Shown: positions 3,655 through 31,591, numbered from the stretch's first letter. The stretch: DNA of 64,000 bases from Gammaproteobacteria bacterium (GCA_965204045.1 CBDBDW010000002.1:2946610-3010609); one strand, 5' to 3'. The notes: generated by a model not told the origin, from the sequence alone. Numbers and translations are program-made.

Positions 3655-4863
3655 ATGGACAAAACCTTAGCCGACCAACGGGAACTGGCCGACAATCTCG
3701 TTAATCGGGCCAGGGCCGTGGCGTCTGATTTACGCGCCCGCGCAGCAGCTGCGGAGGAGCAACGGCGCATCCACGCGGAATCTTACCGCGCCATGAAAGA
3801 GGCCGACTTGTTCCGCGCCTATGTACCGGTGCGTTTCGGCGGGTATGAACTGCACCCGCGCTATTTCTGGCGTGTTGCCGCGGAAATTGCCAAGGGCTGT
3901 CCTTCATCAAGCTGGGTTTACAGCGTCATGTCCTGTCACACCTTCGTGACCGCATTGTTTCCCGAACAGGCCCAGGAAGAGGTGTTCGGGTCCGACCCCA
4001 ATGCCGGCATCAGCGGCATCCTGCCTGATCGGACCAGCGCAACCAGGACAGATGGCGGTTACGTATTAAAAAACAGTGTCTGGCCGTTTGGCTCAGGTTG
4101 CCACAACGCAGACTGGTTCCTGCTCGGTGCGCAACTGGACGGCATGCCTCCGGGACATGACAAGGCGTTTTTCCTGGTGCCCCCGGAAGACATACAGATC
4201 AAGGATGACTGGTATGTGACCGGCCTCAGGGCCACAGGAAGCAACAGCGTATCTTTGAAACAGGATGAATACTTTGTCCCCGGACACAGGATGCTGAAGG
4301 CGGAAACCGCCCTGGCGCACAAGTACGGCACTGCAAGGCCGTTGCTCTACCGGGCGCCGTTCGCGCCGTTACTGGTGATTTCATTAAGCGCCGGCACTAC
4401 CATGGGCGCCGCCACCGGGGCGCTGGAATTCTACGAAGACCTGCTGCAAACCCGGTCCGCCAGGCCGATGGTTTATACCGATGACATTCCCAAAATACAA
4501 CTGTCCTCAACCCACCACATTCTCGCTGAAGCCACGGCAAAACTTGAAACAGCCAGGCTGATGACGGACCATGCCCTGGACTTGTGTTATGAGGCTGCCG
4601 TTGATAATAGCAGGATATTAAGCACGGAACAGCGTGCACGTCTCAGGTTATACGGGGTACATGCCATGCACCTGTGCCGGGAAGTCGTGAATATCCTGTA
4701 CCAGGATTCCGGCGGTTCTTCCCTGCATGAGCGCAGCCTGATGCAGCGCTACTATCGTGATATCAACGCCATGTCCATGCACGAGGCCATGCACGAGGAG
4801 ATTATCAAGGAGGTGTACGGCCGGTTAAGAATGAACCAGACGACTACGCACTGGCTGCTTTAG
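3655..4863 (+). CDS. acyl-CoA-dehydrogenase-fold flavin-dependent monooxygenase (group D, HsaA/DszC-like oxygenase component)
   Basis: 402 aa with ACAD-like architecture but no acyl-CoA catalytic-base context. It sits beside CDGSH and Rieske genes. Confidence 0.55.
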   Translation: MDKTLADQRELADNLVNRARAVASDLRARAAAAEEQRRIHAESYRAMKEADLFRAYVPVRFGGYELHPRYFWRVAAEIAKGCPSSSWVYSVMSCHTFVTALFPEQAQEEVFGSDPNAGISGILPDRTSATRTDGGYVLKNSVWPFGSGCHNADWFLLGAQLDGMPPGHDKAFFLVPPEDIQIKDDWYVTGLRATGSNSVSLKQDEYFVPGHRMLKAETALAHKYGTARPLLYRAPFAPLLVISLSAGTTMGAATGALEFYEDLLQTRSARPMVYTDDIPKIQLSSTHHILAEATAKLETARLMTDHALDLCYEAAVDNSRILSTEQRARLRLYGVHAMHLCREVVNILYQDSGGSSLHERSLMQRYYRDINAMSMHEAMHEEIIKEVYGRLRMNQTTTHWLL

Positions 4864-17785: not shown

Positions 17786-20767
17786 GTGGATAACATTCGT
17801 ATCAGGGGCGCCAGGACCCACAACCTGAAGAATATCAATCTGGATTTTCCCAGGGACAGGATGATAGTGATCACCGGCCTGTCAGGATCCGGCAAGTCAT
17901 CCCTGGCGTTCGACACCATCTACGCGGACGGGCAGCGGCGTTATGTTGAATCACTTTCCGCGTACGCCAGGCAGTTCCTGTCAATGATGGAAAAACCCGA
18001 CGTCGATCATATTGAAGGACTGTCCCCGGCCATCAGCATCGAACAGAAGTCAACTTCCCATAATCCGCGCTCCACCGTGGGGACTATTACAGAGATATAT
18101 GACTACCTGCGCCTGTTGTTTGCCCGGGTGGGTGAACCTCGCTGTCCGGAACACCAGACTCCTTTGGCAGCCCAGACCATCAGCCAGATGGTGGACCTGA
18201 TACTGGAACAACCGGAAGGAAGAAGATTGATGTTGCTGGCTCCCGTGGTCCAGGGAAGAAAAGGTGAGCATATACAGGTAGTGGAAAGAATCAGGGCGGA
18301 AGGTTTCGTGCGGGCGCGTATCGACGGAGAAGTGCTTGAACTGGATAACGTGCCGGCAATGGACCTGCGCAGGAAACACACGATTGAGGCGGTGGTGGAC
18401 CGTTTCCGGGTGCGCCCGGATATCGGTCTGAGACTGGCGGAATCCCTTGAGACCGCAGTACGTCTTTCCGACGGTCTGGCAATCGTCGCTTCCATGGATG
18501 AAACCGATGCCGATGACATGGTGTTCTCAACCCGGTTCGCCTGTCCGGAATGCGGTTACAGCCTGAGTGAACTGGAACCCCGGCTATTTTCGTTCAATAA
18601 CCCGGTCGGCGCCTGTCCCCACTGTGACGGTCTGGGCGTAATCCAGTTTTTCGATTCCGACAAGATAGTCCAGGATCCCGCATTGAGCCTGCCGGACGGC
18701 GCCATACGCGGCTGGGACAGACGCAATGCATATTATTTCCAGCTGATCAAATCTTTGGCAAAACATTATGCTTTTGCCATTGATACACCGTACGCCCGGC
18801 TGCATGAGGATATTCGCCGGGTGATCCTGTACGGCAGCGGTTCTGAAGAAATCGAATTTGAATACCTGCACAGCAAACGCGGCATCATACGCCGCACCCA
18901 TACCTTTGAAGGTGTAATTCCGAACATGCAGCGGCGTTACCGGGAGACCGAATCGGTCATGATCCGGGAAGACCTGAACAGATACCAGAGCAGCCAGCCT
19001 TGTCCGTCCTGCTCAGGCCAGCGCCTCAACCAGGCGGCGAGGCATGTATTCGTAAACAATACCAGCCTGCCGACGATTACCGCGATGACCGTGATGCATG
19101 CCCGGGAGTTTTTTAAACACCTGGTCATACCCGGACGGCGCGGGGAAATCGCCACGCGCATATTAAAGGAAGTTGAGGACCGGTTGCGCTTCCTTGTCAA
19201 CGTGGGTCTGGATTATCTTGCGCTGGACAGGAGCGCGGAAACCCTGTCCGGGGGCGAGGCGCAGCGCATTCGACTGGCCAGCCAGATTGGCGCAGGCCTG
19301 GTCGGTGTGATGTACGTTCTGGATGAACCATCCATCGGTTTGCACCAACGGGACAATAAACGCCTGCTGGCCACGTTGAGGCAATTGCGCGACCTGGGTA
19401 ACACGGTGATCGTTGTCGAACACGACGAGGAGGCCATCAATGCTGCCGACCATGTCATCGATATGGGGCCGGGGGCCGGGGTGCATGGCGGCAGGGTGGT
19501 CAAGCAGGGCAGCCCCGATGATATCGCCCGGTGCAAGGAATCCCTTACCGGCGCCTACCTCTCGGGAAGAAAGCGCATTGACATGCCGTTACAACGCATC
19601 AAGCCTGATCCGGAACGGGTGGTGGTATTGTCCGGCGCTACGGGAAACAACCTCAAGTCGGTCCGGCTGGAACTGCCGCTTGGCCTCATGACCTGCATCA
19701 CCGGTGTTTCCGGATCAGGCAAGTCAACCCTGATTAACGATACCCTGTACCGGATTGCCGCGGGCGAACTGAACTACGTCGGCGCAAAACCGTCCCCATA
19801 CCGGACCATCTCCGGCCTTGAGTATATCGACAAGGTCGTGGATATCAATCAAAGCCCCATCGGTCGCACCCCGCGCTCGAACCCTGCCACCTATACCGGC
19901 CTGTTTACTCCCATCAGGGAGCTTTTCGCCGCCACCCAGGAGGCGCGCTCCAGGGGCTATAAACCCGGCCGTTTCAGTTTCAACGTCAAGGGAGGGCGTT
20001 GTGAGGCGTGCCAGGGAGACGGGCTGATCAAGGTGGAGATGCACTTTCTGCCGGACATATATGTCATGTGCGACGTCTGCAAGGGCAAACGCTATAACAG
20101 GGAAACCCTGCAGGTCCGGTACAAGGGTAAAAACATCCATGAAATTCTGGATATGACGGTGGAAGACGCCCGGGAATTCTTCTCGCCGGTGCCGCTCATC
20201 GCCCGCAAACTGCAAACCCTGGTAGACGTGGGGCTGTCCTATATCCGTCTCGGCCAGAACGCCACGACCTTATCCGGAGGTGAGGCGCAACGGGTGAAAC
20301 TGTCCAGGGAGTTGTCCAAACGGGATACCGGCAAGACGCTCTACATACTGGATGAACCGACCACCGGCCTGCATTTCCACGACGTCAAGCAATTACTCGG
20401 CGTGCTGCATCGATTGCGCGACCACGGTAATACGGTAGTCGTCATCGAACATAACCTGGACGTCATCAAGACTGCGGACTGGATCGTCGACCTGGGGCCC
20501 GAAGGGGGCGATGGCGGCGGAGAGATCATTGCCGCCGGCACACCGGAAGACATTTCAAAACTGGCGCATTCCCATACCGGGCGGTACCTGGCGCCGGTAA
20601 TAGACGAACACCGGGTTTGTATACCAGACAGCACAGACAAACGTGAAGAAATGAGGCCTCAGTTATTAAGAACCGAACTGATCAAGGGACAAAACAGCCC
20701 GGTTACAGATAACTGGAGTGCTGACGACTTTTTAGACAGGGTAAGGCAACAAGCCGGTGATAAGTAA
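17786..20767 (+). CDS. uvrA: excinuclease ABC subunit A, with a ~50-aa C-terminal extension
   Basis: Two ABC ATPase modules (GLSGSGKS twice) and zinc-finger cysteines. Divergent from ssb as in enterobacteria. Confidence 0.95.
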
Positions 20768-20880
20768 TCCCAACTGTCAGGTGCGCCAGGCTGCGGATAA
20801 CGATTTATCGGATATTGATATTCATATCCTGCATAAGTTCATACTTCCTGATAAGCGTCTGACATAGTATGGTGGGAATC

Positions 20881-21174
20881 TCAGCGTCCGGGTTTTTCCT
20901 GGATGATTGAGGGTTGCTTTTCTATCAACGCCAATAGAATCCGCGCCGGCCCTTCCGGGCGCTGGCGCCCCAGTTCCCAATTTTTCAGTGTATCGAGCGA
21001 GACATCAATGCTTTTGGCAAAAGCTGTTTGTGAGAGCCCTGTCTTGCCTCGTACAGTCACGACATCGGGGGCTGATACTTCAATTCCGTGCACCGCGAAA
21101 CCATTGCGACCGCCCTCGAGGTAAACGCGGGTATCCTTAAGGCCGGTCATGACTTTATCGAATGCTTCACTCAT
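20881..21174 (-). CDS. HTH (Xre-family) antitoxin, HigA-like
   Basis: 97 aa with a helix-turn-helix segment LSQTAFAKSIDVSLDTLKNWE. Overlaps the upstream toxin gene by 4 bp. Confidence 0.7.
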   Translation of the reverse strand: MSEAFDKVMTGLKDTRVYLEGGRNGFAVHGIEVSAPDVVTVRGKTGLSQTAFAKSIDVSLDTLKNWELGRQRPEGPARILLALIEKQPSIIQEKPGR

Positions 21175-21569
21175 TGGCGCCTCCTGTAATTTTCAATCAT
21201 ATCTTTTGCAGCAGCTACCAGTGCCTCTCGTTCCCCGGAGCTGAGATTTGTTTTCTCATTCTTGGCAAATACGGCAAGTAAAAACACGGGAATGGTTTTG
21301 TCGGAAAACAGAAACACTACACGCGCCCCGCTGCTTTTACCACGCCCTGAACGGGCAAACCGCATTTTTCGTATGCCTCCTCCAAGTGACACGCCAGACT
21401 TTGGATTCTTTGCTACTGTGTTGACGATTTCATCTCGTTCCGAGTCTGACAGTATTCCCTTTGCTGCCGTGAGATACGCAGGCGTCTCAACGACAGTCTG
21501 TAAACTACCGCTCATAGAAAAATCATAGGTATCCCGGGCCTCGAAGTCAATAGCGATTGTATAACACAA
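21171..21569 (-). CDS. RelE/HigB-like toxin (Gp49/phage-derived RelE-fold family)
   Basis: Motifs RKMRF...GARVVFLF...VFLLAVFAKNEKTNLS are characteristic of HigB/Gp49-like toxins. Toxin-first orientation with an Xre antitoxin downstream. Confidence 0.65.
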   Translation of the reverse strand: MCYTIAIDFEARDTYDFSMSGSLQTVVETPAYLTAAKGILSDSERDEIVNTVAKNPKSGVSLGGGIRKMRFARSGRGKSSGARVVFLFSDKTIPVFLLAVFAKNEKTNLSSGEREALVAAAKDMIENYRRRQ

Positions 21570-21678
21570 ACCGGGGTAATCGCATACTTTTGTTGCGTCT
21601 GCCTGAACCGGACTTTGATATACTTTCTTCTACTGTGATTGATAACATGGGAACGGAAATGAAAAAGGAAGAAACAGA

Positions 21679-24360
21679 ATGAATGAGAAACCAAAGGAAA
21701 ACCGCTTCCTGGACGCGTTGGAAGCCCTGTTTACCGGCGCCGAAGTAGAGGGCGAATCCGGCTTCATCAACCTGATGAGGATGAAACGGGGATATTTTAA
21801 ATCCTTGCGTCCGAAACTCATGGAAAAAATCGACAGTCGTGCCGGGAAAGATACGGCTTTCCGGGAAGAACTGTTCGATAAACTGTACACCTTTTTCAGT
21901 CGTTATTTCTGTGAAAGCGGCTCGATCTATTTCCGTCACTTGCCTGCTTTCTCAAAAATCTATGAGCGCGTCTATTCCTCTGATGAAGACGTTGCGTTGT
22001 CATGGAAAACCCACATGCTATATTACGTGAAATCGGACATCCTGGTGCGTTCCATGCCGGTAAGGCTGGAGGACAAACAGAATCCCGCACACAGGAGACT
22101 GTTTTACTTCGACGCTTCCCAGGTTGAACACAAACGTAACAACGAGCGACGCGAGTTTGTTTTTGAGTTCGCAAAAGTGGAAAGAAGCCCGGAAGGCAAC
22201 GTTGTACATCTCTCGGTATCCTACTCCCAGAAAGGCAGAAAAACCAAGCTTGAGACCATTATCAGAAAGGCCAGAAACGCGCCCGGCGCCAAGGTAATGC
22301 TGAGTGAAGATGACTTACAAGACGCATTTCGGGTTTTCAAACGGCAGACGGAAGCCGATTTCTTTATCAACAAGGATGCGCGGGGCTTTCTCCGCGAACA
22401 ATTCGACTTGTGGCTTTACCAGTACATGTTTCAGGATGAGACAATTTTTGAACAAAAACGGCTTGACCAGTTGCAAGCTATCCAGCTAACCGCGTACGAC
22501 ATCATAGATTTCATTGCCCAGTTTGAGGATGAACTGCGGCGGACCTGGGAGAAACCGAAGTTTGTACGCAACGTCAATTACGTGGTGACACTGGATAAAC
22601 TGCCCCCCGGACTGCTGGATAAGATTGTCAGGCACAAGGGCGCGGCAGCGCAGGTTGAGGAATGGCAATCGCTGGAACTGGTGGATGAGCAATTTTCCAT
22701 CGCGGAATTAAACAAGGGGGACGGTGAACTGGACCTGGAGAGTAACGGTCCCGTTAACAGGGCTTGCCGCTTTCTGCCTTTGGATACAAAGCATTTCAAA
22801 GAACTGGAGATGGAAATTCTTGGCGCGCTGGGCGACTTGGACGAGGCACTGGACGGCGAACTGGTACACAGTGAGAACTGGCAGGCGTTGAATACCCTGC
22901 AAAAGCGGTATAGGGGAAGGGTGAAGTGTATTCACGTTGATCCGCCCTATAACACGAAAACCAGCGGTTTTCTTTATCGGAATCAATACAAGCATTCCAG
23001 TTGGCTTACGATGATGGAAAACCGTGTGAATATTGCGTTGGAATTACTTGCGGAAGACGGTTCATTTTTGTGCCATATTGATGAGAACGAATACGAAAGA
23101 CTCCAGCTTCTCATGGAGAATACGGGATTGCTCAATCCCGGAACGGTAATATGGGATAAGAAAAACCCGATGATGGGAGCTAGAGGGATTTCTACTCGGC
23201 ATGAATATATCTTGTGGCGGACAAGACACGAGGGGGCTTTCTATCTCAAAAACACGAATGTCCAAGCCATGCTCGCTAAATCCAAAGAACTTATAAAAAA
23301 ACACGGTGGTGTGAATGGCAATGTGCGTAAAGAATTTTCGCGATGGGTAGAGGGCAATGTAGATCTCACCGGAGGAGAACGTGCTTACCGATTTTTAGAT
23401 GACAAAGGACAAGTTTATCGGGGTGTCGCTATGGTGTGGCCGAATCCCAACCCTGCTCCTGATAAATTCTTTGTTCCTTTAATACACCCTCTCACGAGAA
23501 AGCCATGTCCAGTTCCCCAAAGGGGTTGGTCGCAGTCGCCAGAAAGAATGAAAAGTCTTTTAGAAAAAGGGGAGATTCTATTCGGCAAAGACGAAACTAC
23601 TCAGCCACAGCGTAAGATATATCTCACCGGAGAATCCAGGCGCCCTGTCTCAACGGTCATTGAAAATGGTAAAAGAGGAAAGAAAGAAATAGATAATTTA
23701 GGACTGGACTTTTCCTACTGTCATCCTACATCACTTTATGAAGAATTGATAAATGCGTCTTCAATAAATGGAGATGGAGTCGCTCTTGACTACTTCGCTG
23801 GCTCTGGTACCACTGGCCATGCAATCATCAACCTAAATAAGGATGACGGTGGCAATCGAAAATATGTGCTCGTCGAAATGGGAGATTATTTTCATACAGT
23901 CCTGCTCCCGCGTCTAAAGAAAATCGTTTATTCCAAAGACTGGAAAGACAGGAAGCCGGTTTCCCATGAAGGCAGCAGTCACTTTCTCAAATACTACACC
24001 TTGGAACAATACGAAGAAACCCTGAGAAATTCCCACTATCAGGACGGCGAACAACTGGAACTGGACAGCATGAAATCGCCGTTCGAGCAATACGCGTTTT
24101 TCGGAGATGACAAACTCACCCACTCAGTCAGGCCGTTAAAGAACGGCAAATTGAAAATCAACCTCCACGCGCTCTACCCGGACGTAGACATCGCGGAGTC
24201 ACTCTCCAACATCCTCGGCAAACCCATCCGTCATCGTACGGCTGACACCGTAACGTTCACCGATGGCGCCACCGAAAAAACCAACCTCGCAACCATGACC
24301 GAGCAAGAGAAACGGCATTTCATCTCATTGGTGAAACCCTACCTGTGGTGGGGAGAGTGA
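21679..24360 (+). CDS. type III R-M Mod-like N6-adenine DNA methyltransferase (beta class: DPPY, then TRD, then FxGxG) with a ~400-aa N-terminal extension of unknown function
   Basis: IHVDPPYNT (motif IV) about 290 aa upstream of DYFAGSGTTGHA (motif I), which is the beta-class order typical of Mod. 893 aa, about 250-300 aa longer than typical Mod. Confidence 0.75.
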   Translation: MNEKPKENRFLDALEALFTGAEVEGESGFINLMRMKRGYFKSLRPKLMEKIDSRAGKDTAFREELFDKLYTFFSRYFCESGSIYFRHLPAFSKIYERVYSSDEDVALSWKTHMLYYVKSDILVRSMPVRLEDKQNPAHRRLFYFDASQVEHKRNNERREFVFEFAKVERSPEGNVVHLSVSYSQKGRKTKLETIIRKARNAPGAKVMLSEDDLQDAFRVFKRQTEADFFINKDARGFLREQFDLWLYQYMFQDETIFEQKRLDQLQAIQLTAYDIIDFIAQFEDELRRTWEKPKFVRNVNYVVTLDKLPPGLLDKIVRHKGAAAQVEEWQSLELVDEQFSIAELNKGDGELDLESNGPVNRACRFLPLDTKHFKELEMEILGALGDLDEALDGELVHSENWQALNTLQKRYRGRVKCIHVDPPYNTKTSGFLYRNQYKHSSWLTMMENRVNIALELLAEDGSFLCHIDENEYERLQLLMENTGLLNPGTVIWDKKNPMMGARGISTRHEYILWRTRHEGAFYLKNTNVQAMLAKSKELIKKHGGVNGNVRKEFSRWVEGNVDLTGGERAYRFLDDKGQVYRGVAMVWPNPNPAPDKFFVPLIHPLTRKPCPVPQRGWSQSPERMKSLLEKGEILFGKDETTQPQRKIYLTGESRRPVSTVIENGKRGKKEIDNLGLDFSYCHPTSLYEELINASSINGDGVALDYFAGSGTTGHAIINLNKDDGGNRKYVLVEMGDYFHTVLLPRLKKIVYSKDWKDRKPVSHEGSSHFLKYYTLEQYEETLRNSHYQDGEQLELDSMKSPFEQYAFFGDDKLTHSVRPLKNGKLKINLHALYPDVDIAESLSNILGKPIRHRTADTVTFTDGATEKTNLATMTEQEKRHFISLVKPYLWWGE

Positions 24361-24364
24361 TACA

Positions 24365-25015
24365 GTGAAGCAAGAAAATTACACCGCGCCCGTTTTTCGA
24401 CAAAAGGCATTCCATTGTCCGATATGCAATGTTTATGCAAACCAGGATTGGTATCCTGCCTACTATGGTTTTAGGGAACTTGGGTTAAACCAGATAGAGA
24501 TTCTACAAATTGCTCTTTGTGCTCATTGCGGACATTTTTCTTTCTGGCTGAACGGTAATCTCGTATATCCCAAAAAAATTACCGCCCCACTTGCGCATAG
24601 GGACATGCCAGAAACCGTAGTCGGCTATTACAACGAAGCGCGGGAAATATCTACTTCTTCTCCAAGATCTGCAGCAGCATTGCTTCGCATCGCCGCCAAA
24701 AAGCTCTGTGAAGCACTTGGAGAAAATGAACCTAACCTGAACCGAGCTATAGGCAACTTGAGCAAAAAAGGTTTGCCGCAAAATGTAATAAAATCACTGG
24801 ACACAGTCAGGATTGTGGGCAATGAAGGTGGCGCTCACGAAGGGCAGATTGATCTGACTGGTGAAGACAATAAGGAAATTGTTGACAGGTTATTCTGGTT
24901 AATCAATTTCATTATTGAAAAAACCATTACAGAACCAAGCGAAATAGAAAACACCTTCAGTTCCTTGCCGGAAAATAAAAGACAGGCTGCTGAAAAAAGA
25001 GACGAAGGAAAATAA
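24365..25015 (+). CDS. zinc-ribbon + DUF4145-like (possible HEPN-like) domain protein, translationally coupled to mod
   Basis: N-terminal CPIC...CAHC zinc ribbon. C-terminal segment RIAAKKLCEAL...SLDTVRIVGNEGGAHEG resembles DUF4145 as recalled from memory. GTG start 4 bp after the mod stop. Confidence 0.5.
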   Translation: MKQENYTAPVFRQKAFHCPICNVYANQDWYPAYYGFRELGLNQIEILQIALCAHCGHFSFWLNGNLVYPKKITAPLAHRDMPETVVGYYNEAREISTSSPRSAAALLRIAAKKLCEALGENEPNLNRAIGNLSKKGLPQNVIKSLDTVRIVGNEGGAHEGQIDLTGEDNKEIVDRLFWLINFIIEKTITEPSEIENTFSSLPENKRQAAEKRDEGK

Positions 25016-25187
25016 CAGTTGCAAAAGAATAGATTCGCTTCCTACTGTCACTTAAACATCGTGAATGGTGGAGGAAATAAGAATAGAACGGCAAAAGAAT
25101 CCTCTTCAGGATTTTGCACTGTAGCTATAGATATTCAGTTTATTGGAAGAAAATACCAAGCATAATTAATAACTGGAACTAGACAGC

Positions 25188-25481
25188 ATGAAATCACCGT
25201 TTCAGCAATACGTTTTTTTCGGTGACGATAAACTCGCTCATGCGGCCCAACCATCGGAAAACGGCAAACTGGACATCAACCTGCAAGACCTGTACCCTGA
25301 TATAGACATCGCAGAGTCACTTTCCAATGTCCTGGGCAAACCCATCCGTTGCCTTACAACAAATAGTGTTACCTTTATCGATGGAACGACAGAAAAAACT
25401 AACCCAGCCACCATGACAGAAGAAGAAAAACGCCATTTTCTCTCACTTATTAAACCTTATTTGTGGTGGGGTGTTCTATGA
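25188..25481 (+). pseudogene. diverged duplicate of the mod 3' end (97 codons, homologous to mod residues ~797-893); recombination scar or orphan fragment
   Basis: Protein identity to the Mod C-terminus is about 75% (MKSPFQQYVFFGDDKL.. versus MKSPFEQYAFFGDDKL..). Nucleotide identity about 75%. Copy B is more AT-rich. Confidence 0.7.
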
Positions 25482-26881
25482 ATCTCAATCTGAATATTAA
25501 AAATATCGGCAAGTTGACCAATGCTGAAATTCATATTGCAAACTTCACAGTGTTTGCAGGACCAAACAATACAGGTAAGAGTTTCGTTTCTAAGCTGCTG
25601 TATTCGCTGTTTAATGCTATGAACGCCAATCATATACAGATACATGTGAACAACTTGATCAAGCCCGTTGTAAGCAGTTTTTTCAGGCTGGATAGATTGG
25701 CACACTATAACATCGAAAAATCACAGCCTTTGCTGGAGGAGGGTGACCTAGAAAAACTGGAAGCCCTTGTCGAAGATTGTATGCCTGGTGACTCTAAAGA
25801 ACTGGATGAGGTTATAAGTAATCTTATCCACCAGACGAATGAGATTGAGAAAAAAGTAAACGATATTCAGATCCCTGAAGGAGTAAAAGAGGAAGCGAAA
25901 GGAAGGCAAAATGGAACATCACCTATCATGAGAATGAAAGAAACACATGAGGAATTAAAAAAATCTTTGGATAAATTAAAACAAGATTTAAGCGGGGGGG
26001 ATTGGCTGGATTTTATAGTCGCTGGGATGAAGTACAAAATCCGGCAAAACCTGATTCATAATTTCCAAACACCTACATTATCGGGCCTCATAGCTGAAGA
26101 CGATGCACCCTCAGAAATCATGTTCAAAAACTTCGGAAAATTCGAACTATTAAATGATGAAATCGAATTTGCGATAGACGAAATTTTGGTGCAGGAATTA
26201 CAACATCATTCCAACGTAATCTATCTGGAATCGCCCGTCTACTGGAAATTAAAGAATGCCCTAGATGATATAAGACGTAACCCGCGGAGAATGTTCTTTA
26301 GAAGAGAAAGGGAGCTACTGAGTGGCGTTCCCGAGTACTTCTATGATCTGATCACTGCACTAAGTTTTCAGCGCACAGGTGGCATTGCATTTCCGAACGT
26401 ATATGAAAAGTTGACGGGCAAGGAGGTCATGGGCGGGAAGATTGCCATTTCGGAAAGTGGCAATTTATCATTTCAAGAGAATGAGCGAAATTTCACATTG
26501 CCGCTTACCGCGATGGGAATAGTGAACATGGGAATATTGGCGTTGTTAATTGAACGTAATGTACTGGATAAAGATACTGTTATTTTTATCGATGAACCGG
26601 AAGCGCACCTACACCCCGCTTGGCAGGTCGTCATGGCGGAAGCCCTCTTTGAACTGTCCCGCTATGGTGTGAACGTAGTCATTGCTACCCATAGTGTGGA
26701 CATTCTTAAATGGCTGGAAGTACATGTGAAGAAAAAGCCTGAAGACAAGCAACTAATTGCACTAAACCAGTTTCCCGTCAACAACAGCGAAGTTGATGAA
26801 GATTTTGAAACCAAAATGGCAAATATCAAGCAGGAATTAACCCAGCCCTTCTCTGACTTGTATGTGGAAGGACTGTTATGA
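25478..26881 (+). CDS. ABC/SMC-like AAA ATPase (AAA_15/AAA_21-type) with a coiled-coil insertion; defence-associated ATPase embedded in the R-M locus
   Basis: Walker A FAGPNNTGKS. Walker B/D-loop VIFIDEPEAHLHP. H-loop IATHS. About 110-aa coiled-coil insert. No Toprim or other nuclease domain. Low-GC gene. Confidence 0.7.
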   Translation: MNLNLNIKNIGKLTNAEIHIANFTVFAGPNNTGKSFVSKLLYSLFNAMNANHIQIHVNNLIKPVVSSFFRLDRLAHYNIEKSQPLLEEGDLEKLEALVEDCMPGDSKELDEVISNLIHQTNEIEKKVNDIQIPEGVKEEAKGRQNGTSPIMRMKETHEELKKSLDKLKQDLSGGDWLDFIVAGMKYKIRQNLIHNFQTPTLSGLIAEDDAPSEIMFKNFGKFELLNDEIEFAIDEILVQELQHHSNVIYLESPVYWKLKNALDDIRRNPRRMFFRRERELLSGVPEYFYDLITALSFQRTGGIAFPNVYEKLTGKEVMGGKIAISESGNLSFQENERNFTLPLTAMGIVNMGILALLIERNVLDKDTVIFIDEPEAHLHPAWQVVMAEALFELSRYGVNVVIATHSVDILKWLEVHVKKKPEDKQLIALNQFPVNNSEVDEDFETKMANIKQELTQPFSDLYVEGLL

Positions 26882-27444
26882 CGTCTCTGGATAGCTTCCG
26901 GGAGAAACAGAATGTTTCCTCCGGCAAAGATTTTGAAGCCTTCCGCATGGATAACACAAAAAAGGCCGAAGGGATTCCTGATATGAGAACACACGTCGGG
27001 TTGGGTAGTTGTGATTGCTGTGACTATTTTCTTGTCCATGAAAATAAAGTTGTGCTGGTTGAAGAAACCCGGTTAGCGGATACCATTAAAACCATAGGAA
27101 AAAAATACTCTTACCTTACTGAACCCCACAGGCAGAAATTTACCGAAAATTGTGTCAGGCAGGAAAACTATGTGAAGGTATATGGGGCTTTGCTCGTCCT
27201 GTGCCGTCTGGCTGCGAAGTGCCGGGAAGCATCGACCCTGATACAAGACAAAAAACACGTTTTTTATCTTGTTGTCAAAGGAATGGAAACAGAAGAGGCA
27301 AAAAGGATGTTCGATAACTTGAAAGACAATTTGCAGTTGCAGTTACAAAGCGTCCTGACTCCGGCGGTAATGGACAATGTGGAAGTGATACCGTCCCGTG
27401 AGCTCCTGGCCGACAAACTATCACAACATGCAACCCGCTCTTGA
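26878..27444 (+). CDS. 188-aa partner protein of the ATPase (possible RloB/AbiLii-like or PD-(D/E)xK-like effector); function unknown
   Basis: Start overlaps the ATPase stop (ATGA). Contains IPD...x19...VHENK, a possible PD-ExK arrangement, and a CDCCD cluster. No confident domain call. Confidence 0.4.
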   Translation: MTSLDSFREKQNVSSGKDFEAFRMDNTKKAEGIPDMRTHVGLGSCDCCDYFLVHENKVVLVEETRLADTIKTIGKKYSYLTEPHRQKFTENCVRQENYVKVYGALLVLCRLAAKCREASTLIQDKKHVFYLVVKGMETEEAKRMFDNLKDNLQLQLQSVLTPAVMDNVEVIPSRELLADKLSQHATRS

Positions 27445-30400
27445 ACCCATCACCCAAACCCTGAACTACGGCGACCTGCCCGAAACCTGGCGCGTGCCGG
27501 AGATTGAACGCTTTTCAGTACAGAAAACACTGTATGACTATCAGGAAGACGCGCTTCGGTGTGCAGCGCGGGCGCTGTACCTGTACTATGGAAAGGAAGG
27601 AAATGACTACCAGACCGGGGAATCGCAAGCTGCCGACAGCGCCCGTAAGCAGGATTTTGCCAACCGGTACTCCTCTTCCCAACTTAACGACTTTTCAGTA
27701 AAGCAGTACGAAACCAACTCAGACAGACAAAACCGGAGAGAGAGCCCCGTCTTTAAAATTCTTTCCGAGTATATAACGCCGCAAGGTGAAGAAATTCCAT
27801 ACCGGCAACTCATTAATCGCATGTGCTTCTGGATGGCAACCGGCAGCGGGAAAACCCTGGTCATGGTAAAACTGGTTGAGTACTTGCACAGGTTGATGGG
27901 ACACGGTGGAATTCCACCGCACAAAATCCTCATTCTTGCTCCGAGCGATCATCTTATCGGACAGATTCGCCGGGCTATAGAAGAATTCAACCAAGCCGGC
28001 CTGAATATCGATTTTGTCCATCTTCGGGAACATGGAAAAATATCGCAGAGCCGACTCGGAGACTCTGTAACAGTCTATTACCATCGTAGCGACAACCTCT
28101 CTGACATGCAGAAGGAGGCGCTGACAGATTATCGCACCCACGAAGACGCCGGGAAATGGTATGTCCTCCTGGACGAGGCCCACAAGGGAGGCAAGGAAGA
28201 TTCAAAACGACAGGCGTATTACGCCATCATGGCTCGCCATGGGTTTCTGTTTAATTTCTCGGCCACGTTCACTGACCCTGAGGATATTGTAACGACAGTC
28301 AAGAAATACAACCTGGAGGAATTCATCAGGAACGGGCATGGTAAAAATATTTACCTGAATGAGAAAGAATACGAGGTGTTCAAACACAGGGAGCAGGAAA
28401 TCAGCCACGACGAAAGACGGAAAATCGTCTTGAAGTCACTTATCGCGCTGGCTTACGTGTCGCTCAGGGTGAAGGAACTCCGCAAAAATACGGGTTTGAA
28501 AGAACTCTATCACCTGCCTCTGATGCTGACCCTGGTCAACTCGGTGAATACCGACGTGGAAAATGAGAGGAATGACCTGTGGGCGTTTTTCCAGACCTTG
28601 CGCGAGATTGCTACGGGAGAGGTGGATGACGCGCTTTTCCGGACAGCAAAAAAAGACCTTGCGAAGGAATGGGCAGATGCGACCTTTCTTTTTGGGGAGG
28701 TCGGCGGAGAAATTATCCGGCTTGACCAGGCCCGAATCACAGGCATAAAACTAACCGACCTGCGCGAAGCGGTGTTTTCAGGTCGCAGAAAAAGCTCGTT
28801 ACAGTTAATCCGCAGCAAGGACAACAAGGAACTCGCTTTTCAGGTCAGAAACGCAGATGCCCCGTTTGCGCTGATTCGCATAGGAGATACCTCCAAGTGG
28901 CGGAATAACCTCCTGACAGGTTACGAAGAAACCAAAACCTTGCAGGAAAAATCTTTTTTTGATGACCTGGAAAAAAGTTCAATCACAATTCTCATGGGGT
29001 CCCGCTCTTTCTTCGAAAGCTGGGACTCCAACCGCCCCAATGTCATCAACTTCATCAATATCGGTGGAACCGAGGCAAAGAAATTTGTCGTGCAGTCCGT
29101 CGGGCGCGGCGTGCGCATCGAGACATTGCCCAACCAACGCCGCCGTTACGCCTTCCTGCCGGACAGTAACGAAAAGAACCTGCTTCAGGATTACGCCTGT
29201 GAAGTGCAGCCCGCAGAGACGCTGTTCCTTTTTGCCACTAATCGCAACGCGGTGAAGTCTGTTCTGGAAGGGCTGCAAACGGAAAAAAGCGGTATTTTTG
29301 AAAACGTTGACGGCTTTGTCAGGTCGCCAAAGCCGGTGATCAACGGCCAGTTACTGCCGCTCCTGGTCCCGGAATACAAAGAGGAAAAGACAGGTACGGC
29401 GACAAAGGCAAAATTTGCAATGAGTTCGGATACGCTGAACAGGTTCAGGAACTACCTTGCAAAAACTTCGGATTCGGCGCTTGCCGTCCGCGACAACCTG
29501 GTAGCCCGGGAGATAGCTGAGTTACGCGCATGCGCAGAAGGCAAAGAAAATATCCGCTTGGATCCGGGAAAGAACTACAGCAGCCTTGCCTTCCTGCAAA
29601 ATCGCCTCATATCCCACCTGTCAAAAACGGGGAGGATAGCCGATGGCCTGCGCGAACTGGATGAGGATGAAGACATCGTTCACTTTCGCAAAATACAAGT
29701 GCGACTGTCTCAAGGAGACCTGATCGATTTACAGAAGAAACTCAAAGCTGTCGCACAAGGCGATATATCCGAAGATGAAAAGAAAAAACGGGCGCTTCAG
29801 TACGCAGAAAACAAAATCAGCGAGGAAGAATTCATGGAGTATATCAGCGGCAAATCTGAAGAAACATTCAACGACTTGAAAATCAAAAACATTTCCAGGC
29901 ATTACTATGCGCCGGTTATTGCCGCCCAGACCGGAGCAGCGGATTTCATTAAGCACATCATCAGGGAAGAAAGCGAAGTGCGGTTTCTTGACAACCTGGA
30001 ACAATGGTTAGAAGACAATGACCCAGGATGGGACGCCTGGATGTTCAGCAAAATAGATGAGACATTGGACAATATCTATATACCTTACTACGATGCTACA
30101 ACCAATGAATACACTCGCTTCCTGCCGGATTTCATCTTCTGGATGTACAAGGATGATGAATACCGCATCGTTTTTGTTGATCCGAAAGGGACGGCGCACA
30201 AATCCGCCTATCTTAAAATTGACGGATATCAAAAACTGTTCGAACCGGAAAATAAACTGAAAGAATTCAAATACCGGAAACATGATCCTGGAACAAGCGC
30301 GGTATCGGAAGAGGATAACCCGGTTTCCGGCGCACGGATAAACGTCAGACTTTTGATGTTTAATGCGGATAGCGCCGTGCCGGATGCTTACAAGCGTTTC

Positions 30401-30448
30401 TGGACGGCTGCTCCGGCAGATGTTTTTTCCTGTGCCGCAAGCGGATGA
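27428..30448 (+). CDS. type III R-M Res-like subunit: SF2 helicase (motifs I, II, III, VI) with a C-terminal PD-(D/E)xK endonuclease
   Basis: MATGSGKT (I), LLDEAHKG (II), FSAT (III), QSVGRGVRI (VI). C-terminal LPDFIFW...IVFVDPKG. Start taken at MQPALEP (27428), overlapping the upstream stop. Confidence 0.75.
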   Translation: MQPALEPITQTLNYGDLPETWRVPEIERFSVQKTLYDYQEDALRCAARALYLYYGKEGNDYQTGESQAADSARKQDFANRYSSSQLNDFSVKQYETNSDRQNRRESPVFKILSEYITPQGEEIPYRQLINRMCFWMATGSGKTLVMVKLVEYLHRLMGHGGIPPHKILILAPSDHLIGQIRRAIEEFNQAGLNIDFVHLREHGKISQSRLGDSVTVYYHRSDNLSDMQKEALTDYRTHEDAGKWYVLLDEAHKGGKEDSKRQAYYAIMARHGFLFNFSATFTDPEDIVTTVKKYNLEEFIRNGHGKNIYLNEKEYEVFKHREQEISHDERRKIVLKSLIALAYVSLRVKELRKNTGLKELYHLPLMLTLVNSVNTDVENERNDLWAFFQTLREIATGEVDDALFRTAKKDLAKEWADATFLFGEVGGEIIRLDQARITGIKLTDLREAVFSGRRKSSLQLIRSKDNKELAFQVRNADAPFALIRIGDTSKWRNNLLTGYEETKTLQEKSFFDDLEKSSITILMGSRSFFESWDSNRPNVINFINIGGTEAKKFVVQSVGRGVRIETLPNQRRRYAFLPDSNEKNLLQDYACEVQPAETLFLFATNRNAVKSVLEGLQTEKSGIFENVDGFVRSPKPVINGQLLPLLVPEYKEEKTGTATKAKFAMSSDTLNRFRNYLAKTSDSALAVRDNLVAREIAELRACAEGKENIRLDPGKNYSSLAFLQNRLISHLSKTGRIADGLRELDEDEDIVHFRKIQVRLSQGDLIDLQKKLKAVAQGDISEDEKKKRALQYAENKISEEEFMEYISGKSEETFNDLKIKNISRHYYAPVIAAQTGAADFIKHIIREESEVRFLDNLEQWLEDNDPGWDAWMFSKIDETLDNIYIPYYDATTNEYTRFLPDFIFWMYKDDEYRIVFVDPKGTAHKSAYLKIDGYQKLFEPENKLKEFKYRKHDPGTSAVSEEDNPVSGARINVRLLMFNADSAVPDAYKRFWTAAPADVFSCAASG

Positions 30449-30494
30449 AAGGCAGACGACCAATTACTTTTTCTGAACAAACAGATTCTCATTT

Positions 30495-31430
30495 ATGACT
30501 GCTCTCATCTGCGGTTCCTTTGCATACGACCGGATCATGGTCTACCCGGGGCGTTTCAGGGAAGACATACTGCCGGACAAGATCCATATGCTCAATGTCT
30601 GTTTCGTCGTCCCGGACATACAGCACGAGTTCGGCGGCTCCGGGGGGAATATCGTCTATAACATGAAACTGCTGGACGCGGACTGCCTGCCCATGGGCAC
30701 GGTAGGGGTTGATTTTGCCGAATACCGCAAATGGCTGGAACAGAACGGAGTCGATCAACGACACCTGCGGGTAGTGGAAAATACTTTTACCGCGCAATGT
30801 TTCATTACCACCGACCTGGATAACAACCAGATCACGACCTTCCAGACAGGCGCCATGGCCCATTCCCATGAAAATCGGGTATCCATGGCCGAAGGCGTCA
30901 GTATCGGCATCGTCGCCCCGGACGGCAAGGAAGGAATGTTGCAACATGCCCGGCAGTTTGCCGAACAAGATATCCCGTTCATCTTCGACCCGGGCCAGAA
31001 TGTCACCGTGTTGACCGGGGACGAACTGTTGGACAGTCTTGAGCACGCGGCCTGGGCGGTCTTCAACGATTATGAGTGGCAACTGGTTACGGACAAAACC
31101 GGCCTCAGTGCCTCCGGGGCGTTGGACCGCGTCGATAGCCTGATCGTCACCCGCGGCGCTTCAGGCTCTATCATTCATACCCGCGCCGGCCCTGTAGACA
31201 TTCCGACTGCCAGGACGGAACACCTGGCCGACCCGACCGGGTGCGGCGACGCTTACCGCGCCGGCCTGTTGTACGGCCTGATGCGCGGCATGGACTGGGA
31301 AACCACCGGAAGGATTGCTTCCCTGATGGGCAAGATCAAAATTGAAGTGAGAGGCACACAGAATCACATATTCACCCGGCAGGAATTTGAGGATTTATTC
31401 AAACAATACTTCGGTTATTCTTTCTCTTGA
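30495..31430 (+). CDS. PfkB-family carbohydrate/nucleoside kinase
   Basis: Ribokinase-like fold with GG dipeptide (FGGSGGN) and C-terminal DPTGCGDAYRAG anion-hole motif. Confidence 0.7.
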   Translation: MTALICGSFAYDRIMVYPGRFREDILPDKIHMLNVCFVVPDIQHEFGGSGGNIVYNMKLLDADCLPMGTVGVDFAEYRKWLEQNGVDQRHLRVVENTFTAQCFITTDLDNNQITTFQTGAMAHSHENRVSMAEGVSIGIVAPDGKEGMLQHARQFAEQDIPFIFDPGQNVTVLTGDELLDSLEHAAWAVFNDYEWQLVTDKTGLSASGALDRVDSLIVTRGASGSIIHTRAGPVDIPTARTEHLADPTGCGDAYRAGLLYGLMRGMDWETTGRIASLMGKIKIEVRGTQNHIFTRQEFEDLFKQYFGYSFS

Positions 31431-31437
31431 TAGCAAT

Positions 31438-31461
31438 GGGGACGGACTTAAGTCCGTCCCC
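31438..31461. repeat. REP-like palindrome ggggacggac-ttaa-gtccgtcccc (family member 1), probable terminator/RNA hairpin
   Basis: Perfect 10-bp stem 8 bp after the kinase stop. Related copies at 44109-44159 and 56428-56452. Confidence 0.6.
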
Positions 31462-31591
31462 GGTTGCTTCGGATACTCCTTCCAATAACTAAATCCCCGG
31501 TTTGCAACTCCGGGATCTTTACTCTATACTGCCCGACCTTAATCCTTGCCTCACCGTATTGACGGGAGGCTGAATCCATGAGGATATGACA

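Follow-up and report, generated by a model that had tools for sequence, protein, structure and literature searches.

The mod–res locus

The 64,000-nucleotide (nt) stretch from a Gammaproteobacteria bacterium analysed here (GCA_965204045.1, CBDBDW010000002.1:2946610-3010609; hereafter the window) carries a type III restriction-modification (R-M) locus in which mod, encoding the DNA methyltransferase, lies upstream of res, encoding the restriction subunit, on the same strand and with 3.0 kb of embedded genes between them. Nested in this interval, all on the plus strand, are a homologue of RAZR, a free-standing open reading frame (ORF) of 97 codons (ORF97), an ATPase gene and the gene for its partner, p188. 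ORF97 lies in a second, diverged copy of the mod 3′ end. It is very likely that this copy is a recombination scar, made up of the last ∼103 codons of a second, divergent mod and marking the left edge of the ATPase-p188 cassette, and that the mod–res interval is a slot for defence cassettes. The features of the locus are:

17786-20767, plus strand: uvrA (Pfam); conserved left flank, syntenic in loci L055 and L048
21679-24360, plus strand: mod, type III DNA methyltransferase, 893 amino acids (aa) (Pfam, PADLOC and PDB matches); mosaic
24050-24357, plus strand: copy A, the resident mod 3′ end, codons 791-893 (repeat D1 and alignment)
24365-25015, plus strand: RAZR/PD-T7-4 homologue, 216 aa, first embedded cassette (PADLOC, Pfam)
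25016-25167: AT-rich spacer of 152 nt, its right edge being the left breakpoint of the presumed scar
25168-25481, plus strand: copy B, the probable truncated 3′ end of a second, divergent mod, which reads as ORF97
25188-25481, plus strand: ORF97, 97 codons, ATG at 25188 and TGA at 25479-25481
25478-26881, plus strand: ABC-type ATPase (AAA_15/AAA_21), first gene of the second embedded cassette (Pfam)
26878-27444, plus strand: p188, 188-aa ATPase partner, overlapping the res start
27398-30448, plus strand: res, type III restriction subunit, superfamily 2 (SF2) helicase, 1016 aa (Pfam, PADLOC)
30495-31430, plus strand: pfkB-family kinase (Pfam); conserved right flank, syntenic in L055

The assignment to type III R-M is based on the methyltransferase domain of Mod (Pfam N6_N4_Mtase, PF01555, 4.9e-30; PADLOC MTase_III, 8.5e-202; PDB 4zcf_A, EcoP15I Mod, 5e-40), the SF2 helicase of Res (Pfam ResIII, 2e-15, and DEAD, 1.5e-8; PADLOC REase_III, 1.5e-25) and the mod–res order on one strand. 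A PD..D-x-K-like motif at the Res C-terminus (...LPDFIFW...VFVDPKG...) was read by eye only and has no profile match. No terminator-like site was found on the plus strand between mod and res.

The 216-aa product matches the PADLOC PD-T7-4 model (PDLC04109) at 1.6e-72 over residues 5-214 and Pfam DUF4145 at 2.4e-11, and a Cys4 zinc ribbon (CPIC...CAHC) is visible in its N-terminal translation. PD-T7-4 has been renamed RAZR and combines a zinc ribbon with a DUF4145/HEPN RNase (PMC13017515); the window gene is thus predicted to be a full-length RAZR/PD-T7-4 homologue, with zinc ribbon and DUF4145 HEPN RNase. The ATPase matched 125 PADLOC ATPase models, the best being HEC-02A (1e-31) in a partial match confined to residues 278-437, while p188 resembles HEC-02B weakly (E 0.0035) and has no Pfam match. 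In other loci p188 always follows the ATPase, and ATPase homologues in 20 loci align from residue 1. Neither a recombinase nor an integrase was found among the ten principal ORFs scanned between uvrA and pfkB.

A second, divergent mod 3′ end

Alignment of the two segments gives a direct repeat (D1) between 24050-24349 and 25168-25467, 300 nt ungapped at 74% identity and 1118 nt from start to start. This is far beyond chance, since there is no other repeat longer than 28 nt within 20500-31500. The full homologous span, 24050-24357 (mod codons 791-893) against 25168-25475, is free of gaps, the shared coding frame of 288 nt (24070-24357 against 25188-25475) is 72.9% identical and the encoded proteins are 74% identical. 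The initial annotation, in which the mod end recurs as a free-standing 97-codon ORF at about 75% nucleotide identity, is borne out by these values. It placed the start of the repeated part at codon ∼797, which is right for the coordinates of the frame, but the homology begins earlier, at codon 791 (position 25168), ∼20 nt 5′ of the ORF97 start codon. Within these few nucleotides copy B has a TAA (25170-25172) where copy A has CAA, and the ORF97 ATG (25188) corresponds to Met798 of Mod. As that annotation also described, ORF97 is intact, its TGA overlaps the ATPase start codon (ATG at 25478) as ATGA, and it is AT-richer than its counterpart (GC 0.44 for copy B and 0.53 for copy A). ORF97 corresponds to positions 739-799 of the PADLOC MTase_III model.

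The spacer 25016-25167 shows no homology to mod, res or any fetched locus other than the orthologous locus L049, and contains no res 5′ remnant, promoter, terminator or Rfam match; its predicted folding is not out of the ordinary (z-score -0.48). With no mod homology to the left of 25168, copy B is a fragment and not part of a longer second mod gene, in line with what had first been supposed. The same arrangement is found in L049, a 1.5-kb metagenome contig from an unrelated run (Logan SRR22586460), where the RAZR 3′ end, spacer, ORF97 and ATPase follow in the same order, with an identical breakpoint and ∼93% identity to the window. The longest identical run between copies A and B is 15 nt. 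Recombination between them, which would delete the RAZR homologue, is accordingly expected to be infrequent, and this agrees with both copies having survived from a time before the window and L049 lineages parted.

Divergence between the copies is saturated at synonymous sites (proportion of differing synonymous sites, pS, 0.75) and low at nonsynonymous sites (pN 0.13). Most of it would therefore have accrued while both sequences were part of working mod genes under purifying selection, which excludes local duplication followed by decay; copy B would thus derive from another type III mod that was once functional and of which only the 3′ end is left. Its codon composition points the same way. 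The GC content at third codon positions (GC3) of copy B (0.44) is that of the ATPase (0.45), and not that of copy A (0.71), uvrA (0.67) or pfkB (0.70); the RAZR homologue has 0.39. In codon composition copy B thus goes with the ATPase cassette, and neither with copy A nor with genes of the host. Nor is it paired with copy A when 49 mod 3′ ends (tails) are placed in a neighbour-joining tree.

The mod–res interval in other loci

A scan of one genome per species, queried with an alignment of tails, gave 47 loci (L001-L047), all in metagenome-assembled genomes (MAGs), onto which the six proteins of the window were mapped. Among the groups represented, at least eight at the level of phylum or class, are Nitrospirales, Dehalococcoidia, Binatia, Limisphaerales, Thermodesulfobacteriota, Arenicellales, Ca. 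Poriferihabitaceae and Ca. Spongiihabitans. The tails are 60-81% identical across these groups, and many of the genomes have sponge-symbiont-type names. Horizontal sharing of a single R-M scaffold among inhabitants of one habitat seems to be the case, the habitat being read from MAG names only.

The fetched span contains both mod and res in 37 loci; of these, the two genes are adjacent in eight (6-121 nt apart in L022, L028, L030, L032, L033, L037 and L038; 393 nt in L009) and separated by 1-8 kb in 29. Larger plus-strand ORFs fill this gap in 16 other loci listed. In 14 further places a mod 3′ end stands immediately before a homologous ATPase-p188 cassette. As the initial annotation anticipated, there are loci in which mod is directly followed by the ATPase gene: in L043 a full mod is directly followed by ATPase-p188-res, and in L016 a full mod stands directly before ATPase-p188. 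In the other 12 places the mod 3′ end lacks most or all of the mod body. These pieces begin at codons 700, 774, 805, 806, 824, 829, 829, 849, 860, 861 and 877 (793 in the window), and every one runs to the mod stop; in L034 the mod N-terminus passes in frame into the tail that starts at codon 806. Five such junctions, when aligned, are homologous in the tail 3′ end, in a ∼40-nt spacer containing GGAG and in the ATPase start, and differ in their left breakpoints. The tail fragments are independent truncations of a common mod tail–ATPase unit. A role for the last mod codons as ribosome-binding site for the next gene was considered and dropped as a general rule, most ATPase cassettes having the GGAG spacer of their own.

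The res gene leaves comparable pieces. After p188, these loci regularly have the opening 40-120 codons of res, and ‘res-head’ fragments made up of its first ∼60-120 codons are found in loci other than that of the window. Where several cassettes are present (L003, L012, L016, L020 and L044), res-head::mod-tail junctions lie between them. One junction type, in which res up to ...LYYGQE is joined to ...KEKQRFVSLIKPYLWWGE, is common to L003 (Dehalococcoidia) and L044 (Gammaproteobacteria), and in L020 the two are joined where Res and Mod share a short motif (TLYDYQEDALR in Res, TLEQYEETLR in Mod). Other cargo of the slot, likewise co-oriented, is:

M78 peptidase (RmrA-like) and DUF4411
Schlafen/AlbA_2-HATPase_c_4 and ParA-like ATPase
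type II-like methyltransferase, HATPase_c_3 and a protein of ∼395 aa
several ABC/OLD-type ATPases

All of this other cargo is of defence type.

Further arrangements were observed in this set. L026 (7613-13827) contains two full-length mods in the order mod1, RAZR, mod2, ∼2 kb, res, and is a full-length counterpart of the mod, RAZR, tail order of the window. In the degenerate loci L034 (9770-10267) and L040 (9878-10159), and in proteins P0032 and P0034, the mod N-terminus is fused in frame to the tail, and L039, L041, L042 and L046 are cassette arrays with tails but without a mod body; cassettes seem to outlive the R-M genes in degenerate loci. Remnants of RAZR/PD-T7-4 lie at cassette junctions in L054 (∼3975-4088, internal deletion), L002 (15140-15220) and L007 (2988-3047), the latter two being 3′ ends only, so that cassettes leave scars of themselves too. 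In L048 (4263-6940) and L050 (6882-9579) mod is called as a body ORF and a separate tail ORF of ∼96-112 aa. These contigs are labelled 6x and 9x, apparently low coverage, which makes frameshift errors the likely cause of the split, and some short ‘tail proteins’ in protein databases are probably frameshift artefacts.

Syntenic relatives

Contigs with the same chromosomal neighbourhood (uvrA ... pfkB) have flanks 80-87% identical to those of the window and different cargo:

L055: mod, [methyltransferase-HATPase-400 aa], [ATPase-p188], res
L053: [methyltransferase-HATPase-395 aa], followed by ATPase, where the contig stops
L054: mod, a RAZR remnant (∼50 nt from its start and ∼66 nt from its end) and a Schlafen-like gene, where the contig stops
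L048: mod, [methyltransferase-HATPase-397 aa], [Schlafen-ParA], res

The differing cargo provides direct support for exchange of cassettes at this chromosomal site. Taken with the recurrent linkage of tails to the ATPase, it upholds the proposal that such embedded modules are exchanged between R-M loci.

Adjoining mod upstream and divergent from it, on the minus strand at 20881-21569, are a helix-turn-helix/MqsA-like gene (97 aa) and a RelE-family gene (132 aa). Both are present in L054; L053 has the 97-aa ORF without the RelE gene.

Alternative explanations

Several observations weigh against the interpretation of copy B as an inert scar brought in from another locus. The search for a donor turned up none that is close: the full-length mod tails nearest to copy B are 84-86% identical to it in protein. 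That of the full-length mod P0097 is 84.5% identical to copy B over the full 97 aa and that of P0124 85.7% in a partial local alignment; the prediction that mods elsewhere would match copy B at their 3′ ends thus holds in that full-length ones exist, but none is close enough to have been the donor. An exhaustive protein search places the tail C-terminally in proteins of 48-967 aa. Of more than 4,600 homologues of mod, the nearest are 83% identical to it. No exact match to ORF97 occurs in the contig index, and a metagenome scan with the ATPase returned only two distant loci (54-58% identical). The internal tails of L003, L016 and L020 are nearest to the resident tail of their own locus, the copies being 95-97% identical, so that their source would be a close relative, intralocus duplication or gene conversion and not a distant donor. 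Finally, there is no mod tail before ATPase-p188 in the syntenic L055. The remaining points concern constraint on ORF97, and bear on whether the fragment has acquired a function.

It is possible, though we think it unlikely, that a scar of the same origin has been co-opted, ORF97 being translated as a free-standing Mod C-terminal domain that could act as a coupled leader for the ATPase or as a small protein in contact with Mod, Res or the ATPase. ORF97 is intact and has its own ATG in both the window and L049, and its stop codon overlaps the ATPase start here, where other loci have the ∼40-nt spacer. The 31 differences between the two orthologues fall 5/9/17 on the three codon positions and cause 13 amino acid changes, against 20.6 expected if changes with the same transition share were random (P=0.0014). 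Such third-position bias would not be expected of an inert scar, and ORF97 may be under constraint as a translated frame. Changes of the two lineages alternate along the sequence and do not form one patch. Gene conversion from copy A was considered as the cause of the low amino acid divergence and was rejected, derived changes being interleaved on both branches when copy A is taken as outgroup. The profile score of copy B for the family equals the median of full-length tails, and tail fragments as a group do not score clearly lower than full-length tails (P=0.08). The AlphaFold model of ORF97 has a mean predicted local distance difference test score (pLDDT) of 76 and predicts a compact fold with confidence for residues 40-90; a Foldseek search of the PDB with this model returned nothing below E=0.9, so that no hint of a function came from the fold.

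Against co-option, the selection test rests on only 31 substitutions, retention of the open frame in ORF97 and L049 is by itself uninformative (P=0.38), and no obvious Shine-Dalgarno-like sequence precedes the ATG at 25188. Fragments elsewhere start at more than 12 different codons, and some are 20 codons long, frameshifted or out of frame. The orthologous 62-codon fragment of L056 and L057 seems to evolve neutrally (codon positions 6/4/7, P=0.18), next to a 581-aa gene with 31/32/121. A res-head::mod605-893 piece in L016, which surely is not functional and cannot be a working methylase, likewise has a low pN/pS (0.13) relative to its full copy; the differences in that piece may be older than the fragment. 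In L056 and L057 (5866-6189) the 62-codon fragment is 9% diverged and the spacer before it 21%, without codon-position bias, which suggests nucleotide-level homogenisation with other tail copies in the locus and not protein-level constraint.

About as improbable is displacement in the reverse direction, in which copy B would be the remnant of an earlier resident mod that was followed by ATPase-p188, and an incoming mod 3′ part with the RAZR homologue would have recombined in the conserved mod 5′ region and been joined illegitimately at old codon 791. Orphan Rhs and CdiA-CT modules come about in this manner. The composition of mod agrees with such an event. The gene is mosaic. Over residues 1-400 its product shares 95% identity with P0097 and P0083, but over residues 400-790 of these proteins the identity is a mere 38-57%, and GC3 falls into blocks (0.59-0.64 at 21679-23178, 0.34-0.39 at 23179-23778 and 0.53-0.71 at 23779-24357), which suggests that the middle part, for specificity and catalysis, has been swapped. 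Moreover, mod, copy A and the RAZR homologue are linked in L054, and ATPase-p188 adjoins res in L055 and L053. These points are offset by the cassette-like GC3 of copy B and the host-like GC3 of copy A, by the lack of a tail in front of the L055 ATPase, and by the window ATPase being only 76-78% identical to that of L055, while the flanks are 82-85% identical.

In-place tandem duplication of the resident mod 3′ end, with later divergence of a non-functional copy, is very improbable. It would account for a direct repeat within one locus, and 95-97% identical copies do occur in L003, L016 and L020, but a decaying copy would show pN close to pS, whereas here synonymous sites are saturated at a pN of only 0.13, GC3 differs by 0.27 and copy B is not the nearest neighbour of copy A. 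An assembly artefact can be set aside, given that the copies differ at 27% of positions and that L049, assembled independently from another run, has the same junctions.

Probable mechanism of cassette exchange

The arrangement is most readily explained by a recombination scar that borders the ATPase-p188 cassette on its left. In this type III R-M family, the region from the mod stop to the res start would serve as a slot for co-oriented defence cassettes, and a cassette passing from one locus to another would take along parts of the mod 3′ end and res 5′ end that flank it; wherever a join forms outside the allelic position, a mod tail or res head piece would be left between cassettes. In the window, recombination between two type III loci would have combined a unit of copy B and ATPase-p188, of lower-GC origin, with the resident mod and RAZR homologue upstream of it. 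On the right, p188 runs on into res without a break. On the left, the join at 25168 borders on unrelated sequence and is on that ground likely to have been illegitimate, the tail being carried as a passenger. This departs from the initial annotation, which had homologous recombination across the conserved mod 3′ end as the joining step: a clean homologous crossover there would replace the tail, not duplicate it.

As to the direction of transfer, composition favours the arrival of copy B with the ATPase, while the mosaic mod and the ATPase-p188-res order of relatives allow the reverse, a displacement like that of Rhs modules. The earlier proposal that the ATPase module brought a foreign mod tail with it thus stands as regards the linkage of a foreign tail to the module, and as regards direction is the one that composition favours. 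The data show the duplication and the fragment nature of copy B, its divergence under purifying selection, the match of its composition to the ATPase cassette, the repeated linkage of tails to the ATPase in other loci and the differing cassettes of syntenic relatives. From these we infer that copy B and the ATPase cassette probably form the newcomer segment, that recombination in the conserved gene ends is the driver and that the fragment has no protein function.

A more far-reaching version, in which the mod 3′ and res 5′ ends and their fused junctions act as portable homology arms of an integrase-free, cross-phylum array and, in addition, the fragment in the window is co-opted and translated, appears rather doubtful. 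A co-opted 97-aa Mod C-terminal domain would, through its frame, feed ribosomes into the ATPase gene, or it would tether the cassette to the R-M complex.

Relation to known systems

The classical case of a defence gene embedded in an R-M operon is PrrC inside hsdMSR. Defence genes have since been described as nested within Hma, BREX, DISARM and type I R-M systems, an arrangement used for discovery as ‘guilt by embedding’; type III R-M is not treated there, the discussion leaves the origin of embedding open, and the words ‘recombination’, ‘exchange’ and ‘homologous’ are absent from the text (Payne et al. 2024, bioRxiv 10.1101/2024.01.29.577857). The window resembles these systems in that co-oriented defence genes (the RAZR homologue; the HEC-02-resembling ATPase and its partner) are nested between subunit genes, and differs in that the host system is a type III mod–res pair and that the site bears traces of exchange in the form of mod-tail and res-head fragments.

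Orphan rhs/cdiA modules offer a parallel. There, a conserved piece of the upstream gene precedes each displaced cassette, and the arrays record successive replacements. A mod 3′ fragment likewise precedes ATPase-p188 in the window and in 12 other places, and in both cases conserved coding sequence would act as homology arm; the likeness is one of working, not of membership. In contrast to those modules, the cassettes here are whole defence operons (RAZR, ABC ATPases, methyltransferase-HATPase) and not a toxin tip with its immunity gene, the fragment is not in frame with a secreted carrier, and the scars come from two genes, mod 3′ and res 5′, fused into composite junctions.

Defence hotspots, such as those of P2 and P4 prophages and chromosomal defence islands between conserved core genes, also hold variable defence cargo between conserved flanks, with content that differs in close relatives. 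In the present case, however, both flanks belong to a single working R-M system, one half each, and its operon encloses the cargo. Defence cassettes in sedentary integrons have reportedly been described in a 2024 bioRxiv study. Integron arrays share with the slot the co-oriented, promoterless cassettes behind one upstream gene and the recurring junction element between them. They differ from it in that no integrase is present among the ten ORFs scanned here, and in that the junctions are coding-sequence fragments with variable breakpoints and not attC sites (no attC model was run). A limited literature search, which is no proof of novelty, found no description of embedded mod–res arrays or of such junctions.

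A single scar of this kind is ordinary molecular archaeology; a type III mod–res slot with arm fragments across phyla is a modest but real extension of a known theme. The scar and its counterparts give a checkable answer, for one family, to the question of how embedded defence genes arrive and move. Cassettes carry the coding ends of mod and res along, and these ends stay at the junctions, where they can be used as sequence tags for cassette boundaries. This allows a boundary-aware form of ‘guilt by embedding’, by which whatever is enclosed by a mod tail and a res head of this family becomes a candidate defence cassette. The locus extends embedding to type III R-M, and points to the sharing of one R-M scaffold and its cargo across phyla.

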